From UHGV virus genome UHGV-0091736: a DNA stretch of 64,000 nucleotides; one strand, written 5' to 3'. Below, piece by piece: positions 3,256 to 64,000 of the stretch; the stretch's first letter is position 1; each line of letters begins with the position of its first letter. Under the pieces are notes generated by a model. That model was not told the origin of the DNA, ran no database searches, and saw nothing but the letters and a program-made list of their open reading frames with translations. This DNA is from a virus. The translations under genes were made by a program, and so were the position numbers.

Positions 3256-3573
3256 TCATGATGAGCTTAAAGCTCCTTTGCGTGCTCCAGCTGCTTTTCC
3301 AGCTCGATCACCACTTTTGCCGCCGTTTGAACGGTTTGAGCTGACTGATTCAACACGTAAGTTGCTTGACGCATTAGAGCCTCCAGACTTGATAGCTCGT
3401 TTGTGTCCAACGTCTTTACCTCTGACAGCAGCTTTTCCATCGCGCTTTTCAACGATGCGACGTGCACGGTGGCGCTGAGCATCTCCGCTCTTGCTCCCAA
3501 TGCCTGTTTCACCACGGGCAATTGCGGTACGTCTTTCTTGTGCATAATCTCTCTTTCCTACATGGTCTGCCAT
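3256..3573 (-). CDS. small highly basic Gly/Ser/Arg/Lys-rich protein (putative nucleic-acid-binding)
   Basis: 105 aa; SD AAGGAG 7 nt before ATG; G-rich first codon position; late-type TAATGTATA motif about 37 nt upstream; terminator immediately downstream. Confidence 0.55.
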   Translation of the reverse strand: MADHVGKRDYAQERRTAIARGETGIGSKSGDAQRHRARRIVEKRDGKAAVRGKDVGHKRAIKSGGSNASSNLRVESVSSNRSNGGKSGDRAGKAAGARKGALSSS

Positions 3574-3609
3574 TTAAAACTCCTTAACATATCAGTGTAC
3601 ACTAAGGAG

Positions 3610-3618
3610 TATACATTA
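3610..3618 (-). promoter_or_regulatory. TAATGTATA promoter-like motif (minus strand)
   Basis: same 9-mer occurs at 47721 and 63306 about 35-40 nt upstream of start codons. Confidence 0.4.
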
Positions 3619-3629
3619 TAAGTTACTGT

Positions 3630-39493: not shown

Positions 39494-39516
39494 GCCTCCG
39501 TTGGGAGGCTTTTTGT
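39494..39516 (+). terminator. rho-independent terminator
   Basis: GCCTCCgttgGGAGGC followed by TTTTTGTGTT. Confidence 0.6.
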
Positions 39517-40087: not shown

Positions 40088-40699
40088 ATGTCACTAGATA
40101 AACAAATTTATGAAGCTCTAACTGGTAACAATCTTAGTGTAGATGAAAAGAAAGCACTATTGAATATGTTGAAAGAGCGTGACCAATGGAGGAAGTATAA
40201 TAGGATTTTGTCTTTCAAGGCGTATGACTTCCAAAAGAAATTTTATGCAGCAGGATTGAAGCATAGGTTCAGGTTTCTCTGTGCGGCTAACCGAGTTGGG
40301 AAAAGTTACAGTGAAGCGTACGAATTCGCATGCCACGTTACCGGAAGATATCCAACATGGTGGACCGGTCATAAGTTTAAGAGGCCAATACTTGCGTGGG
40401 CTGTAGGGATTACAGGGGACTCAACAAGGAAAGTATTGCAAAAAGAATTATTTGGTACACCAATTGGAAAGGACACTAATCTGCTAGGTACTGGAGTTAT
40501 TCCACGAGATGCAATAGTAATAGATACTATAGAAAGGGATGGTAATAAGCTACAGATAGTACAGATTAAGCACCAGAATGAAAGGGGTGAGTTTGATGGA
40601 TTAAGTACGTTAGAATTTCGATCAACACAACAGGGTGAACATACACTGATGGGTGCTACTGTTGATTATATATGGCTGGATGAAGAGGATTGTATATAA
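40088..40699 (+). CDS. terminase large subunit, 5' exon (ATPase Walker A/B)
   Basis: Walker A AANRVGKS; Walker B YIWLDEE; ORF stops 5 codons after DEE. Confidence 0.8.
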   Translation: MSLDKQIYEALTGNNLSVDEKKALLNMLKERDQWRKYNRILSFKAYDFQKKFYAAGLKHRFRFLCAANRVGKSYSEAYEFACHVTGRYPTWWTGHKFKRPILAWAVGITGDSTRKVLQKELFGTPIGKDTNLLGTGVIPRDAIVIDTIERDGNKLQIVQIKHQNERGEFDGLSTLEFRSTQQGEHTLMGATVDYIWLDEEDCI

Positions 40700-41479
40700 C
40701 ATAGCTAGAAGTGTTGGTCCTCTATAAACTCGGTGAATTGCTGGAACCTCTGACCCTTAAGTGGAAGACAATCAGCAGCGAAGATAATGTATAACTTACT
40801 CATGATACATTATAACGTTCAACGACTATCGAAAGCATAGCCCGTATGGGTGAAGAAGCAAGTAGAGTAGATACCAAGTGGTATCGAAGTGCCGAGCAAA
40901 ACTAAGGAGTGATACATTGGGTAGACCTAACAAATCATTAGATTCAACCAAAACATGTTCAGTGTGCTCTGTAACAAAAGACATAGAATCTTTTGCAATA
41001 AGAACAAGAGCAATATCCACTGGAGAGGTTAGAATCTACCGTAAGTCTCAATGCAAAGAGTGCATGGCTGAGATGAGAAGGGATTGGGGTAAGAATAATC
41101 CAGATAAGATTCGTGAGAATAATAATTCTCCAAATAAGAGAGCTTGCGATAATGCAAGACGGGCTGGATTAGAAACTGCTTCTATTATCAGAGATGATGA
41201 GTATAATAAATTTGTTATGGAAGAAATGTATGAACTTCGAAATCTTAGAACAAAGGAAACTGGATTTCAATGGCATGTAGATCACATAATCCCTTTAAAA
41301 GGTAATAACGTATGTGGTTTTCATGTCTGGTATAACTTGCAGGTAGTTCCTGCTGTTTTCAACCTATCTAAGAGTAATAGTTTTGATGATATAGTCTGCT
41401 CTGCATGGAAACATGCAGCTGGAGAAATCCGGGATGAGATTAACGATCTTGTCTGAACAACACGCCATATGAGTCTATG
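40691..41479 (+). mobile_element. putative group I-type intron splitting the large terminase gene; carries HNH ORF
   Basis: ATPase motifs resume at AIFAQCV...TATPENG in 41477 ORF; no SD before exon 2; insert has AAACTCGGTGAA block shared with the polymerase and helicase insertions. Confidence 0.6.
40878..41456 (+). CDS. HNH homing endonuclease (intron-encoded; start may be TTG at 40917)
   Basis: Zn-finger CSVCS...CKEC plus HNH core [38 protein letters not shown]. Confidence 0.7.
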
Positions 41480-42403
41480 GCTATATTCGCACAGTGCGTC
41501 ACACGTACACTCACAACTAAAGGTCTAGTTACAATTACAGCTACACCAGAGAACGGTTTAACTGAACTGGTAGATAAATTTATGAAAGGTGAAGGGGATG
41601 AGAACACAGGTTCTCTATATTTCCAGAATGCTTCTTGGTGGGATGCTCATGCAGACCTAGGTGGACATATCACTGACCAAGATATAAAAGATATGACTGA
41701 AGGTATTCCAGCGTGGCAGTTAGAGATGCGTTCGAAAGGTATGCCATTGTTAGGAAGTGGTTTGATATATGATGTATCGGATGACACAATTAAATGTGAA
41801 CCATTCGAAATTCCTGATACGTGGAAACGTGTCTGTGCAATTGATATTGGTATTGATCACCCAACTGCTGCTGTTTGGACAGCTTACGATGCAAACACGG
41901 ATACTGTCTATGTTTACGACTCATATAAAGAAGGTGGCTTTACTCCAGTGTATCATGCTCCAGCTATTAATGGTCGTGGTCAGTGGATTCCTGTCATCCT
42001 ACCGCATGATGCGGACAATATTGAGAAAGGTAGTGGATCATCTGTTGCTCAATTCTATAAGAATGCAGGAGTTAATGTACAGAGTGAGACCTTCTACAAC
42101 AAAATTGGAATGGATGGTAAAAAGAACTTCTTTGTAGAACCCGGAATCACAGATATCCGAGAAAGAATGATGAGTGGACGCTTTAAAATCTTTAACACAG
42201 CTGCTAACGCTAAGCTATTCGAAGAGAAAGCTAGATATCACCGCAAGGTTGGTAAGATTATTAAAGAACATGATGACTTAATGGATGCAATGCGCTATTC
42301 AGCGTGCTCTGTTACACATCGTGGTCGCTCTAAGCATGACGTTAGCTACGGAAGTGCTTCTCTGTATGAGGCAAACGTAAGCAGATGGAATCAGAGTTAC
42401 TAA
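41477..42403 (+). CDS. terminase large subunit, 3' exon (ATPase motif III and nuclease domain)
   Basis: TATPENG coupling motif; CAIDIGIDHPTAAVWTAYD...VYVYDSY nuclease-type acidic motifs. Confidence 0.8.
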   Translation: MAIFAQCVTRTLTTKGLVTITATPENGLTELVDKFMKGEGDENTGSLYFQNASWWDAHADLGGHITDQDIKDMTEGIPAWQLEMRSKGMPLLGSGLIYDVSDDTIKCEPFEIPDTWKRVCAIDIGIDHPTAAVWTAYDANTDTVYVYDSYKEGGFTPVYHAPAINGRGQWIPVILPHDADNIEKGSGSSVAQFYKNAGVNVQSETFYNKIGMDGKKNFFVEPGITDIRERMMSGRFKIFNTAANAKLFEEKARYHRKVGKIIKEHDDLMDAMRYSACSVTHRGRSKHDVSYGSASLYEANVSRWNQSY

Positions 42404-47662: not shown

Positions 47663-47667
47663 AACTA

Positions 47668-47698
47668 GACCCTGCCTTCGGGCGGGGTTTTTCGTTTT
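47668..47698 (+). terminator. rho-independent terminator
   Basis: CCCTGCCttcgGGCGGGG followed by TTTTTCGTTTT. Confidence 0.7.
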
Positions 47699-47720
47699 AA
47701 GACCTATACAAGCTAGTGTG

Positions 47721-47729: not shown

Positions 47730-47762
47730 TTCTTTGTCTACATATAACAAGGAGGACAACCT

Positions 47763-52091: not shown

Positions 52092-52097
52092 TAATAT

Positions 52098-52123
52098 AAA
52101 AACCCCGCTTCGGCGGGGGTTTA
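52098..52123 (+). terminator. rho-independent terminator
   Basis: CCCCGCttcgGCGGGGG followed by TTT. Confidence 0.6.
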
Positions 52124-52186
52124 GTAGTAAGTGTGTTCAAGAAGTAATGAAACTAGTATATCACAAAAGGAATACACATAGGAGAT

Positions 52187-52411
52187 ATGAAGATGAAAAT
52201 GATGAAACAAATCAGTTATGGATTAGCTTGTGTTGCTACTGGTTTTGCTGTGTCAGTGGCTGTTCCTGTTAACGCAGTGCATCCTCTGGCAACGCAACCT
52301 GCACCAGTTGAGAAATTGAGTGCATCCTGTAAGCAGCGTACAATTCAAAATAATCTTGTGGTTATTTGTCCGGACTCTGATTCTAGTGCTCTGAGAAATA
52401 TGCTTCAGTAA
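52187..52411 (+). CDS. small secreted/membrane protein next to endolysin
   Basis: 74 aa; signal-like MKMKMMKQISYGLACVATGFAVSVAVPVNA. Confidence 0.4.
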   Translation: MKMKMMKQISYGLACVATGFAVSVAVPVNAVHPLATQPAPVEKLSASCKQRTIQNNLVVICPDSDSSALRNMLQ

Positions 52412-52441
52412 TTTAGGGCTGGCTAGAAAGGGAGGTGAAAG

Positions 52442-56716: not shown

Positions 56717-56721
56717 TACTA

Positions 56722-56750
56722 AGGGAGCTTCGTGCTCCCTTTTCTTGTTT
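56722..56750 (+). terminator. rho-independent terminator
   Basis: GGGAGCttcgtGCTCCC followed by TTTTCTTGTTT. Confidence 0.6.
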
Positions 56751-60647: not shown

Positions 60648-61616
60648 ATGTCACTTTTTGGTGGAGGCGGAAGTAAAACTACTTCCCAAATGATTCGCCC
60701 TGAATACATTCAACAGTATATTGACCAGCTTAACCAACAGATTGGTAATACTAGTTCAGGGGATTATGTTTATCGAGATAATGTAGGGTTTAATAACAAC
60801 CAGACAGAGGCACTTAACAACTTAGCACAATCTGGTGCTCTAGGAACTCTCTCACAGCAATACATGGATGCAGCAGGTCAAGGCTTGGGTTATCTAGATA
60901 ATGCCTATAAAGGCTATCAGAGCCTATCTGGACAAGGTGGGATTACTGGAGAACAGATTGGTGCTCTCGCTGGTCAACTGTATGATGATGACGCTGTGCA
61001 AGCAGCCATTACAGCTAATAATGAACAAGTTCAACAGAACTTGGCACGTAATGCTCTTCCTCAGTTGGCTCAGCAGTATGCTGGTCAGCAAGGTTCAGGT
61101 GCTCGTATGGCTAAGTCTTTTGCCCAAGGCGATGCTCTGAATCAGATGCAAGGTCAAGCAACAGATATTACCAACAGTGCCTATAACTCAGCTATTAGTC
61201 AAGCTGAAAGCATTCTCTCTGGTAATAGACAGAATCAGGCAGCTGCTCTTTCTGGTCTTTCTAATATTGGTTCTAACCTTTCTAACCTAGGTCAGCAGGG
61301 TGCTAATTTGTCTCAACAGCAAATAATGAATCAATGGAATGCAGGGTTGCAGCAACAACAGCAACAACAGAATGAATATGACAATGCCTACCAGAATGCT
61401 CAGAACGCAGCTAATTGGGGATGGCAAGATATCAATAACCAACTCGGTGCAGCAGGTGTGCTTAACGGCGCTCTCGGACAAACCACAACTACTAAAACAT
61501 CTGGTGGCAAAGGTGGTTTCCTTGGTGGAGCTATGAGTGGTGCAGCAGCTGGCTCCTCCTTTGGGCCTTGGGGTGCATTAGCTGGGGGTGTAATCGGTGG
61601 GTTGGCTAGTACTTAA
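60648..61616 (+). CDS. Q/N/G-rich internal virion protein, tandem paralog B
   Basis: 322 aa; MSLFGGGGSKTT start; C-terminal GFLGGAMSGAAAGSSFGPWGALAGGVIGGLAST. Confidence 0.5.
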   Translation: MSLFGGGGSKTTSQMIRPEYIQQYIDQLNQQIGNTSSGDYVYRDNVGFNNNQTEALNNLAQSGALGTLSQQYMDAAGQGLGYLDNAYKGYQSLSGQGGITGEQIGALAGQLYDDDAVQAAITANNEQVQQNLARNALPQLAQQYAGQQGSGARMAKSFAQGDALNQMQGQATDITNSAYNSAISQAESILSGNRQNQAAALSGLSNIGSNLSNLGQQGANLSQQQIMNQWNAGLQQQQQQQNEYDNAYQNAQNAANWGWQDINNQLGAAGVLNGALGQTTTTKTSGGKGGFLGGAMSGAAAGSSFGPWGALAGGVIGGLAST

Positions 61617-61629
61617 TTAGGAGATAAAT

Positions 61630-63285
61630 ATGCAACAGACAACTTACGCTCAGGTCAGAAGTCGTGACCCGAGAAATACTTTCTATGGTATTAATCCGGG
61701 AGCGGCTTCGGCCTCTCCTTATATGGCTAGACCTACTCAGACAGCGGATGTTTCTATGTACCAACGTCCTGCTGTACCTTCATCTCTTGCGGGTCTTGTC
61801 TCTCAGGCAGAAGAAGATCAGAATGCTATGGTTAATCCGGGATTCCAGCAACGTCTTATGGAACAGCAGAATCAAGGAACTCCTACAAGTCTTCAGGGTA
61901 TTGATATTGGAGCACCGGCCCCTGTAGTGGCTAACCCTAACCTATCCACTGATCAAGGTTTACAGGATGCTGGACTTATGCCTAGTGACCCTCTTCCGGT
62001 AACACCTCCTACTAAACCATTAGAAGCTGGCCCTATGGAGTTTACTCCTTCTCAAGTGGAACAGGCACAGGGTGTTATTAATACTCTTGCTCAAGGTCAG
62101 GATACTGGTGATGGAATGACTGCTGCTACTCGTGCTAAAGATCAGGAACGTGTTAACTCTGATATTGTGCAAGTTGCGAAAGCTAAAGACCCTTCAGAAG
62201 CTTGGAACAAACTACAGAAAGAACCATTCTATCAGAACTCTAGCTTCTATACAGGTTTGATGGGTGTAGGTCTTTCAATCATGTCAGGTAAGTCTCCTAT
62301 CGAAGCTTTCCAGATTGGTCAGGGAATGGCTAATCAAGATGAGACTAAGAAGCAATTGGAAGCTAACCGTGATGCTCTGATTGAACAAGGTTTCTCTCAA
62401 GACTCAATCGCAGCTGCTATTGCTAACGGAGACCCATCCCTGCTGAAGATGAAAGCTGTAGACCCTGCTCAGAAAGAGGCGTTGTATGCTGCTCGTGAAG
62501 AACGGCAGAATGCTGAATGGGATAGACGTCAACAGATTCAAGAGCAATCTATGCGTGAACGTGCCGAGGAGACTCGTCGTGCCGCTGAAAAGAGGACTGA
62601 CATGAACTTTGAACGTCAGAAAGAGTTGATTAGTTATCGTGATAAGGTTAAGGCTGAACGTGCTGAACAAGCTGCTCAGAGTTTTAACTTTAACCCGAAA
62701 GAAGTTCGTCTTGCTCAGAACACAGCTGAAGGTACGGTTGCTAAGCAGTGGGCAGAGAAAGGTGGTCTGTTTAATCAGTCCAACAAAGACTTGGATTTGG
62801 CTGACAAAGCAGTTAAAGAGAAAGACTATCAGACAGCTCGCTCTGCTTACATGCAGGCTATCATGAACTCCGCAAGGGCTGAAATCGGTGCTACTCGTTC
62901 TCTTACTGAAGAAGACTTGGGACATTTTGCAGAAGACCCATCAATCTTTGTTCGTGTTGGTAACAAGTTTGCGCTGAAGTCAGGATGGCGTCCTACTGAT
63001 GCTGCTCTTTCTTATGCTCGTAAGCAGGCTAACGTTGGTCACACCTCTGCAATGAAAGGTGTTTCTGATGCTAAGAAAGCTACTATCGAAGCGTACATCG
63101 GTTCTGGTATGGATAAGAAGAGAGCTACTGCATTGGTTAACCGTGCGATTCCTTCTGGTGGTTTCTATGATCCTCTAGGAGTTTTCTCTGAACAAGCGGA
63201 AGAATCCGTTGGTGGTGCAGCAACCAATCCTAAGCTTAATGGTGCTTTATCAGCTGTCGAAGATACTAGCTGGTTCGCCCAATAA
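61630..63285 (+). CDS. virion protein with long coiled-coil region
   Basis: 551 aa; SD AGGAGA. Confidence 0.5.
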   Translation: MQQTTYAQVRSRDPRNTFYGINPGAASASPYMARPTQTADVSMYQRPAVPSSLAGLVSQAEEDQNAMVNPGFQQRLMEQQNQGTPTSLQGIDIGAPAPVVANPNLSTDQGLQDAGLMPSDPLPVTPPTKPLEAGPMEFTPSQVEQAQGVINTLAQGQDTGDGMTAATRAKDQERVNSDIVQVAKAKDPSEAWNKLQKEPFYQNSSFYTGLMGVGLSIMSGKSPIEAFQIGQGMANQDETKKQLEANRDALIEQGFSQDSIAAAIANGDPSLLKMKAVDPAQKEALYAAREERQNAEWDRRQQIQEQSMRERAEETRRAAEKRTDMNFERQKELISYRDKVKAERAEQAAQSFNFNPKEVRLAQNTAEGTVAKQWAEKGGLFNQSNKDLDLADKAVKEKDYQTARSAYMQAIMNSARAEIGATRSLTEEDLGHFAEDPSIFVRVGNKFALKSGWRPTDAALSYARKQANVGHTSAMKGVSDAKKATIEAYIGSGMDKKRATALVNRAIPSGGFYDPLGVFSEQAEESVGGAATNPKLNGALSAVEDTSWFAQ

Positions 63286-63292
63286 GACCTAA

Positions 63293-63337
63293 GTCCTGCC
63301 TTCTATAATGTATATAGGGGGTAGGACATTTTTATTT
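63293..63337 (+). promoter_or_regulatory. hairpin enclosing TAATGTATA motif followed by T-run
   Basis: GTCCTGCC...GGTAGGAC stem with loop TTCTATAATGTATATAGGG (motif 63306-63314), then ATTTTTATTT. Confidence 0.4.
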
Positions 63338-63352
63338 ATAAAAGGAGACGTT

Positions 63353-64000
63353 ATGGCTAACATTAAACCGTGGGAAGAAGCTTCCAAAGCTCCTGCGTAT
63401 CTGAATGCCTCTCCGGAGCAACAAGCTCGAATGAGAGAACAATATAAGGCAGCAGGTGGCTCTATTCCTGAGGAACAGCCAGTAGCACAACCACAACAAG
63501 AAGAACGTGGTGCTATAGGTGAGTTTGCTCAAGGTGTGTCAAATGCTCTTCAATCTGGTGGTGCAAATATTGCAGCTAGTGCTGCTAAAGGTATTGGTGG
63601 TTTAGTTGAGATTGGTGAGAATCTAGCTGGAACACAAACTAGTTATGGTAAGCGTATCCAAGAGAACTCTCAGAACCTTCTGAAAGAACGTATGGAGAAG
63701 ATTGAGGACGGGATTGGTAAATCTGCTGGTCAGTACGCTGGAGTGGCTGCCGATATCGGTTTGACTGTTGCTAACCCATTAGCTGCCGCTGCTATCATCG
63801 CAGGTCGTGAGACAGGTCGTGCATATGCGGACCAAACCCCTGAAGATGGAGAAGATAAGTCTATCCTAGATGCAGCCTTAGTTGGTGGTGCTAACTATGC
63901 GGCTCAGAGAATCCTTCCGGGTGCTGTTGGTACAGCTGAGTCCGCACTTGGACGTATCGGTCAGAACGTTGCTAGTAACGCAGTGGCTGGTGCTAAAGGT
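63353..64000 (+). CDS. partial CDS (5' end of a large virion protein; continues past window)
   Basis: Open frame from ATG 63353 (SD AAGGAGA) to window end, 216 codons; Ala/Gly-rich; not in ORF track as no stop in window. Confidence 0.55.
   Translation, partial: MANIKPWEEASKAPAYLNASPEQQARMREQYKAAGGSIPEEQPVAQPQQEERGAIGEFAQGVSNALQSGGANIAASAAKGIGGLVEIGENLAGTQTSYGKRIQENSQNLLKERMEKIEDGIGKSAGQYAGVAADIGLTVANPLAAAAIIAGRETGRAYADQTPEDGEDKSILDAALVGGANYAAQRILPGAVGTAESALGRIGQNVASNAVAGAKG

Follow-up and report, generated by a model that had tools for sequence, protein, structure and literature searches.

The stretch of DNA analysed here, referred to as the window, comprises 64,000 nucleotides of the virus genome UHGV-0091736 and, judged by its sequence, derives from a Kuravirus (a phiEco32/SU10-like coliphage). 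Its last part, 61000-64000, matches 99 phage records at about 95% identity, nearly all of them Kuravirus-group Escherichia phages (phiEco32, SU10, Paul, and others). From about 38 kb onward the plus strand carries late structural genes, including those for the portal, two "DNA ejection" proteins, and the phi32_25 orthologue, with a transglycosylase also present according to the SU10 annotation. The phi32_25 orthologue (SU10 gp023; phrog_12130), identified from the list of open reading frames and from the SU10 and phiEco32 annotation, occupies 61630-63285 on the plus strand and encodes 551 amino acids of unknown function. Its TAA stop codon (63283-63285) lies 8 nt 5′ of a hairpin, and the next gene begins with an ATG at 63353, the position given in the original prediction. 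This gene is the orthologue of phi32_26 and SU10 gp024 and encodes a 1473-residue protein of the virion or ejection type; its Shine-Dalgarno (SD) sequence AAGGAG (63342-63347) and its start codon, together spanning 63342-63355 on the plus strand, are both outside the hairpin. The 69-nt spacer between the two genes (63284-63352) is 100% identical in phiEco32 and 61 other records, and in phiEco32 it sits between phi32_25 and phi32_26. Four related contigs were found in IMG/VR, and a metagenome scan with a pattern of ribosome-binding site plus start codon, which proved too generic, gave two kuravirus contigs among the 120 stretches listed. A tblastn search with the gene 26 protein found no homologue beyond the same 99 records, and therefore distant lineages such as 7-11 and GAP52 were not comparable.

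Positions 63306-63314 of the plus strand read TAATGTATA, an exact match to tAATGTAtA, the core (-10-like) element of gp36-dependent promoters. The window holds four exact copies of TAATGTATA against 0.61 expected, and none of 100 shuffles reaches four. Six gp36 promoters are described in phiEco32, of which P6 (TAATGTAgA), P13, and P26 are late and P40, P58, and P68 are middle (PMC8948821). They are read by the host core polymerase with the phage sigma factor gp36 and have tAATGTAtA as their lone consensus, as Pavlova et al. 2012 is cited in PMC8948821, with transcription starting 6-8 nt 3′ of the element. The supplement of PMC8948821 places the gp36-dependent late promoter P26 between phi32_25 and phi32_26, and the SU10 paper gives the same sequence as a late promoter. 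In vitro, P26 is transcribed by RNAP-gp36 from linear PCR templates with 4-fold stimulation by gp79, a protein that activates the gp36 holoenzyme and shuts off sigma-70 transcription (PMC12276001). With 69 identical nucleotides, the same position between gene 25 and gene 26 orthologues, an exact consensus, and a phage family that encodes both gp36 and gp79, the site shows no promoter-level difference from phiEco32 P26, and we consider it with high confidence to be the orthologous promoter. The original prediction of a promoter-like motif was therefore correct and also already known, since the spacer is identical to that of the published P26; the promoter by itself adds nothing new. For the trans-acting partners, tblastn located a gp79 homologue at 15231-15476 on the minus strand (100% identical to phiEco32 gp79), and the same search found no match to gp36 within the 64-kb window. 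The gp36 gene should lie just past the end of the window, given that phiEco32 gene 36 is found at about 34.5 kb, just beyond gene 26.

The published cryo-EM numbering assigns promoter bases -14A, -13A, -12T, and -11G and melting from -11 to +2. On this numbering G63310 is -11, the first unwound base, and together with the spacing of 6-8 nt downstream of the element it puts the predicted P26-like start (+1) at 63321 on the plus strand, with a range of 63320-63322. In the -35 region, P68 is contacted at -37G and -34A; the P26-like site has A at both -34 (63287) and -37 (63284). A candidate -35-like upstream element, TAAGACCTA, covers 63283-63291 of the plus strand, -38 to -30 from the predicted start. 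Three exact copies of TAAGACCTA occur in the window, two of them exactly 14 nt 5′ of TAATGTATA, at the P13-like (47698-47706) and P26-like (63283-63291) promoters. The TAAGACC portion (-38 to -32) is kept 5′ of both promoters in most lineages, with NJ01 and ev_rybdy8 one base off each. The other gp36-type promoters of the window, assigned from sequence and context, are P6-like (39525, plus strand), P13-like (47721, plus strand), P58-like (3610, minus strand), and P68-like (8520, minus strand), and P40 falls outside it. Neither TAAGACCTA nor the TAAGACC block is present at the P6-, P58-, or P68-like sites, and we regard TAAGACCTA as a candidate element specific to the P13-like and P26-like late promoters.

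The spacer also contains a perfect sigma-70 -10 hexamer, TATAAT (63304-63309), by which the host holoenzyme could use the site in addition to gp36 or instead of it. The hexamer is conserved in most lineages, and the SU10 authors propose dual sigma-70/gp36 use for some promoters. Against this, no acceptable -35 accompanies it (the best, ATAAGA, matches at 3 of 6 positions), a consensus scan made no call, and three phages have CATAAT in its place. Gene 26 also belongs to the late class, and gp79 shuts off sigma-70 transcription. Use of the site by sigma-70 is accordingly very improbable.

The hairpin into which this promoter is built is larger than first proposed. The original prediction described an 8-bp stem enclosing a 19-nt loop with the promoter motif inside the loop. 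The two arms of that stem, GTCCTGCC (63293-63300) and GGTAGGAC (63320-63327), are indeed complementary with one G-U pair, but they make up only part of the helix. The two halves of the supposed loop pair with each other (TTCTATA with TATAGGG, including two further G-U pairs), and the structure is therefore a single uninterrupted 15-bp stem with a 5-nt loop. Folding, a terminator scan, and pair-keeping substitutions define the 5′ arm, GTCCTGCCTTCTATA, at 63293-63307, where it also forms the promoter spacer from -28 to -14; folding and the scan place the loop ATGTA at 63308-63312 and the 3′ arm, TATAGGGGGTAGGAC, which holds the predicted transcription start, at 63313-63327, all on the plus strand. 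The stem has six G-C, six A-U, and three G-U pairs. The dyad centre is G63310, and TAATGTATA, which does lie between the 8-bp arms, runs across the helix tip, taking in the uppermost part of each arm together with the loop between them, rather than residing in a loop alone. Immediately 3′ of the stem is the T-rich run that had been noticed, ATTTTTATTTAT at 63328-63339 of the plus strand, recognised by sequence and by the terminator scan; it would serve as the U-tract of a putative terminator and as positions +8 to +19 of the P26 leader.

The RNA minimum free energy in context is -22.9 kcal/mol compared with -11.0 +/- 2.7 kcal/mol for dinucleotide shuffles (z = -4.33), and 1 of 200 shuffles folded as well as the hairpin. 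Across calculations the hairpin ranges from -21.3 to -22.9 kcal/mol (about -21 to -23). The plus-strand RNA hairpin (-21.3 kcal/mol) is much stronger than its minus-strand counterpart (-12.3 kcal/mol) because three of the pairs are G-U. In a terminator scan of 50-64 kb, this hairpin was the first-listed terminator-like site and the one with the longest stem. An RNA initiated at P26 (GUAGGACAUUUUUAUUUAUAAAAGGAG...) folds to -2.4 kcal/mol and is essentially unstructured. An Rfam search at the hairpin site returned no family match.

The combination of a stem-loop and a T-run on the coding strand, after a stop codon and just before a late promoter, is shared with canonical intrinsic terminators. 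Compared with these, the P26 hairpin has an atypically long stem of 15 bp, with A/U-rich pairing in the upper half and three G-U pairs in all, and the U-run begins one A off the stem and is interrupted. The bases 3′ of the stem are A, then TTTTT A TTT A T, so that the U-tract A UUUUU A UUU, with a stem-to-run spacer of 1 nt and an interrupted run, passes a simple scan. A rough d'Aubenton-Carafa-type score, calculated with modern energies, gave a borderline outcome: -7 when applied strictly and +27 with the A skipped, relative to about +32 for the terminators 5′ of P6 and P13. In terms of annotation, no terminator is recorded here in the kuravirus GenBank records and papers examined (those for SU10, SU7, and Paul having been screened with predictors), and a literature search for kuravirus transcript-end mapping gave nothing usable. 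Whereas the promoter is well described, the overlap of hairpin and U-tract at P26 apparently is not, as far as the papers and records examined go.

Both other late promoters in the window lie directly behind plus-strand terminator hairpins. The one before the P6-like promoter consists of GCCTCCGTTGGGAGGC (39494-39509) followed by TTTTT, spanning 39494-39514; it ends 15 nt 5′ of the P6-like element and overlaps the P6 -35 region. The one before the P13-like promoter consists of CCCTGCCTTCGGGCGGGG (47667-47690) followed by TTTTTCGTTTT, spanning 47667-47698 and abutting the TAAGACC block. The P13 terminator is annotated in the 4E8, WFI101126, and Paul records, and its stem shows compensatory changes between phages. 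Unlike these two, the P26 hairpin does not precede its promoter but covers the core entirely, and it looks like the fully overlapped end of a P6-P13-P26 terminator series that runs from abutting to overlapping. The 9-mer CCTGCCTTC occurs twice in the window (0.38 expected), at 47671-47679 and 63295-63303, and both copies are 5′ hairpin arms next to late promoters, one in the P13 terminator and the other in the P26 hairpin. The shared 9-mer may be a hint that the P26 structure originated as a duplicate of the P13 terminator with the promoter core placed in its loop. An own promoter for the last gene of an operon would also make most sense if upstream transcription were cut at that point. Elsewhere among the late genes, the P13 spacer region of some relatives harbours an inserted gene for an HNH endonuclease. 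A terminator-like hairpin at 56721-56741 sits in a 50-nt gap after a 985-residue gene with no gp36 motif behind it, and this hairpin would have to let polymerases through if the late genes beyond it rely on P13. The 350-nt gap at 52092-52441, after a 1188-residue gene, contains a hairpin (52103-52118) that looks like a better terminator on the minus strand than on the plus strand.

Comparison between phages was carried out on the retrieved loci, whose 10 distinct sequences were aligned; in 62 records the entire spacer is identical. A diverged lineage (23 records, e.g., SU7, ECBP2, 4E8, TH42, and PAS59), in which the flanking genes are about 78-80% identical, differs at five stem positions. All five differences are pair-keeping transitions: G-U to A-U, C-G to U-G (twice), U-G to C-G, and U-G to U-A. 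When random substitutions were simulated, all 15 pairs were kept in 0.2-4.6% of cases depending on transition bias (P = 0.002-0.05). In three phages, EK5, Bas93, and Bas94, T63304>C opens one pair and leaves a hairpin of -16.7 to -17.5 kcal/mol; the same change turns TATAAT into CATAAT just 5′ of the gp36 element. Overall, 98.7% of stem cells in the alignment are paired, five pairs vary on one side and remain paired, and a single pair is lost in two of the 10 distinct sequences (the three phages above). The 3′ arm is invariant across the retrieved loci and the 62 identical records except for G63319>A, which converts U-G to U-A. Variation in the tail is limited to a 1-nt T deletion or one T>C, each in a single lineage. 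A formal covariation count is zero for pairs changed on both sides, and its shuffle control was uninformative; the test is silent because no pair changes both sides, and informative substitutions are few because the whole spacer is unusually conserved.

These patterns bear on the simplest alternative, that the promoter is the only functional element and the hairpin has no action as RNA. The extended dyad would then be a by-product of the core element, as TA-ATGTA-TA is itself a small inverted repeat. Promoter function is the sole experimentally supported one at this site, and the absence of double-sided covariation, the natural variant that breaks a pair, the borderline terminator score, and the lack of a terminator annotation in the records and papers examined all agree with this explanation. 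However, at the other gp36 promoters the dyad stops at the 2 bp that the consensus itself provides, and the extended one is lacking. All five lineage-specific changes keep pairing, and they do so only if G-U is allowed, as it is in plus-strand RNA. The P13 promoter spacer, compared between the same lineages, shows many differences, including transversions, with only TAAGACC and the core element kept; it varies freely, and therefore the 5′ arm is under more constraint than the promoter alone would explain. The 3′ arm, which has no match to the promoter consensus and no resemblance to other promoters, is conserved together with the T-run in the absence of a known promoter requirement, although a leader role for gene 26 would likewise account for the conserved tail. 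Taken together, a promoter-only site is a serious explanation that we nevertheless think improbable.

The dyad could alternatively act as DNA, with an extruded cruciform exposing ATGTA (-13 to -9) as single strands and aiding opening by gp36 in the manner of N4. The dyad centre coincides with -11G, the first unwound base, and the top strand folds as a DNA hairpin of -8.9 kcal/mol (z = -4.8). In DNA, though, 3 of the 15 positions are G-T mismatches, which become A-C on the other strand (-5.8 kcal/mol), and the substitutions between phages preserve RNA wobble pairing and not DNA pairing. Other gp36 promoters function without such a repeat, and P26 works on linear PCR templates, on which there is no supercoiling to drive extrusion. 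On the grounds of wobble-only conservation, absence elsewhere, and linear-template activity, a cruciform promoter was rejected, and it is the kind of explanation to which we give almost no credence. The hairpin promoters of the N4 virion RNA polymerase have 5-7 bp stems and 3-nt loops, are extruded in DNA, are read by a single-subunit polymerase, and need supercoiling and SSB. P26 resembles them in having its promoter sequence centred on an inverted repeat; unlike in N4, a sigma-like factor on the host core reads both duplex and melted DNA, and gp36 promoters as a class do not share the repeat.

Another proposal was that the element acts after transcription, as a processing site. In this case the hairpin would stabilise a 3′ end against exonucleases or would be an RNase site that splits the gene 25 and gene 26 messages. 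The RNA hairpin is stable, strand-specific, and located straight after a stop codon, and its U-tract is imperfect, all of which would fit such a role; in the related phage 7-11, the published account describes a probable processing or RT-stop hairpin at another locus. The architecture of hairpin plus T-run and the pairing of terminators with promoters at P6 and P13 favour termination instead. RNase III substrates typically have about two helical turns, about 20 bp or more, of (interrupted) double-stranded RNA. The 15-bp helix is below this length and has no Rfam match, and an RNase III site was rejected for these reasons, leaving the processing-site proposal without support. A stabilising role is partly non-exclusive, given that a terminator hairpin would stabilise the 3′ end anyway. 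As an account of the element, post-transcriptional action is unlikely. Translational sequestration of the gene 26 ribosome-binding site was likewise rejected: the SD is outside the hairpin, and the probability of being unpaired from the SD to the start of gene 26 is 0.50 in read-through RNA and 0.46 in initiated RNA.

The evidence leans, without being strong, toward a terminator or attenuator acting on the upstream RNA. The termination half of the original prediction is in this sense plausible, with the structure, the tail, the pair-preserving substitutions, the strand asymmetry, and the P6/P13 analogy in its favour and the borderline discriminant against it. We therefore somewhat prefer a model in which 47 nt (63293-63339) hold two overlapping signals, the late promoter P26 in DNA and an intrinsic terminator or attenuator in RNA. 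At the DNA step, core RNAP with gp36, aided by gp79, would recognise TAATGTATA, melt the duplex from G63310, and start at about G63321; published experiments with an identical sequence demonstrate this promoter step. At the RNA step, polymerases reading through from a P13-type late unit (start near 47736) would produce a transcript that folds the 15-bp hairpin followed by AUUUUUAUUU. We infer that this hairpin ends the gene 13-25 transcription unit 8 nt past the gene 25 stop codon. With the predicted P26 start within the 3′ arm, RNA begun there would have no 5′ arm and could not fold the hairpin, which is possible in read-through RNA only. P26 transcripts would thus pass the U-tract into gene 26, and the last late gene would be expressed independently of the upstream operon, at a level governed by its own promoter. 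Termination at +10 to +19 of P26 would mean that upstream polymerases traverse the promoter before release, and the element would consequently not shield P26 from occlusion, unlike the terminators at P6 and P13.

A parallel is offered by the T4 late promoters located inside hairpins, those of the gene e lysozyme and of I-TevI in the td intron. In both, the hairpin hides the ribosome-binding site and controls translation. The shared logic is a start inside the hairpin, such that only read-through RNA can fold. At P26, with the SD outside the hairpin and a U-tract following it, control would be exerted on transcription termination, unlike in T4. If the terminator overlay is real, the element would be a very compact insulator that closes one transcription unit and opens the next within 47 nt, the start position providing the escape from termination. 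It would account for the last late gene, encoding a 1473-residue virion protein, having its own promoter. It would also give a finer transcription map for phiEco32-type phages, which are under development for therapy, and offer a small part for the design of synthetic operons.

A version closer to T4, in which the ribosome-binding site is hidden, seems to be present at the P58- and P68-like promoters. At the P58-like site (3573-3620, minus strand), a 13-bp hairpin pairs ACTCCTT, just 5′ of the predicted start, with the SD AAGGAG, and the probability of being unpaired is 0.18 in read-through RNA versus 0.56 in initiated RNA. At the P68-like site (8479-8545, minus strand), the helix joins TAACTCTC, which immediately precedes the element, to GAGAGTTA in the region of the SD and start codon, and the corresponding probabilities are 0.27 and 0.51. 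In KBNP1711 the P68 helix is TCACTCTC / GAGAGTGA, with one true double-sided compensatory change. As the 5′ arms of the P58 and P68 helices lie upstream of the predicted starts, it is in read-through RNA alone that these helices hide the SD and start codon. It is tempting, though still speculative, to propose that kuraviruses systematically nest gp36 promoters in RNA structures and let the transcript start decide the fate of the RNA, through a terminator at P26 and through helices over the ribosome-binding site at P58 and P68. If so, temporal class would be enforced by RNA folding in addition to the sigma switch, with the read-through RNA at P58 and P68 being early RNA made by sigma-70. If the overlay at P26 is real, it suggests, along with the structures at P58 and P68, that RNA folding could be part of the reason for the so far unexplained differences in timing between gp36 promoters.

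A separate observation concerns the terminase large-subunit gene, which is interrupted by a group I intron at 40672-41418 on the plus strand (Rfam RF00028, 45 bits against a gathering score of 50, E = 6e-10, full-length model). The open reading frames in the region are 40088-40699, 40878-41456, and 41477-42403, and the intron carries one for an endonuclease VII/HNH-like protein. About 77 nt at the 3′ end of the intron match the group I intron cores of T4-like td and phage DNA-polymerase genes, and none of the other kuravirus records in the collection has the insert. The fourth exact TAATGTATA of the window is on the plus strand inside this intron (within 40785-40812), about 90 nt 5′ of the endonuclease open reading frame, and it is not among the six published gp36 promoters. 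An inverted repeat, TAATGTAT..N12..ATACATTA, has this copy as its 5′ arm, and its opposite arm reads TAATGTATC on the minus strand. The copy may drive the homing endonuclease as a late promoter of the gp36 type, comparable to that of T4 I-TevI, or it may just be part of an intron helix.
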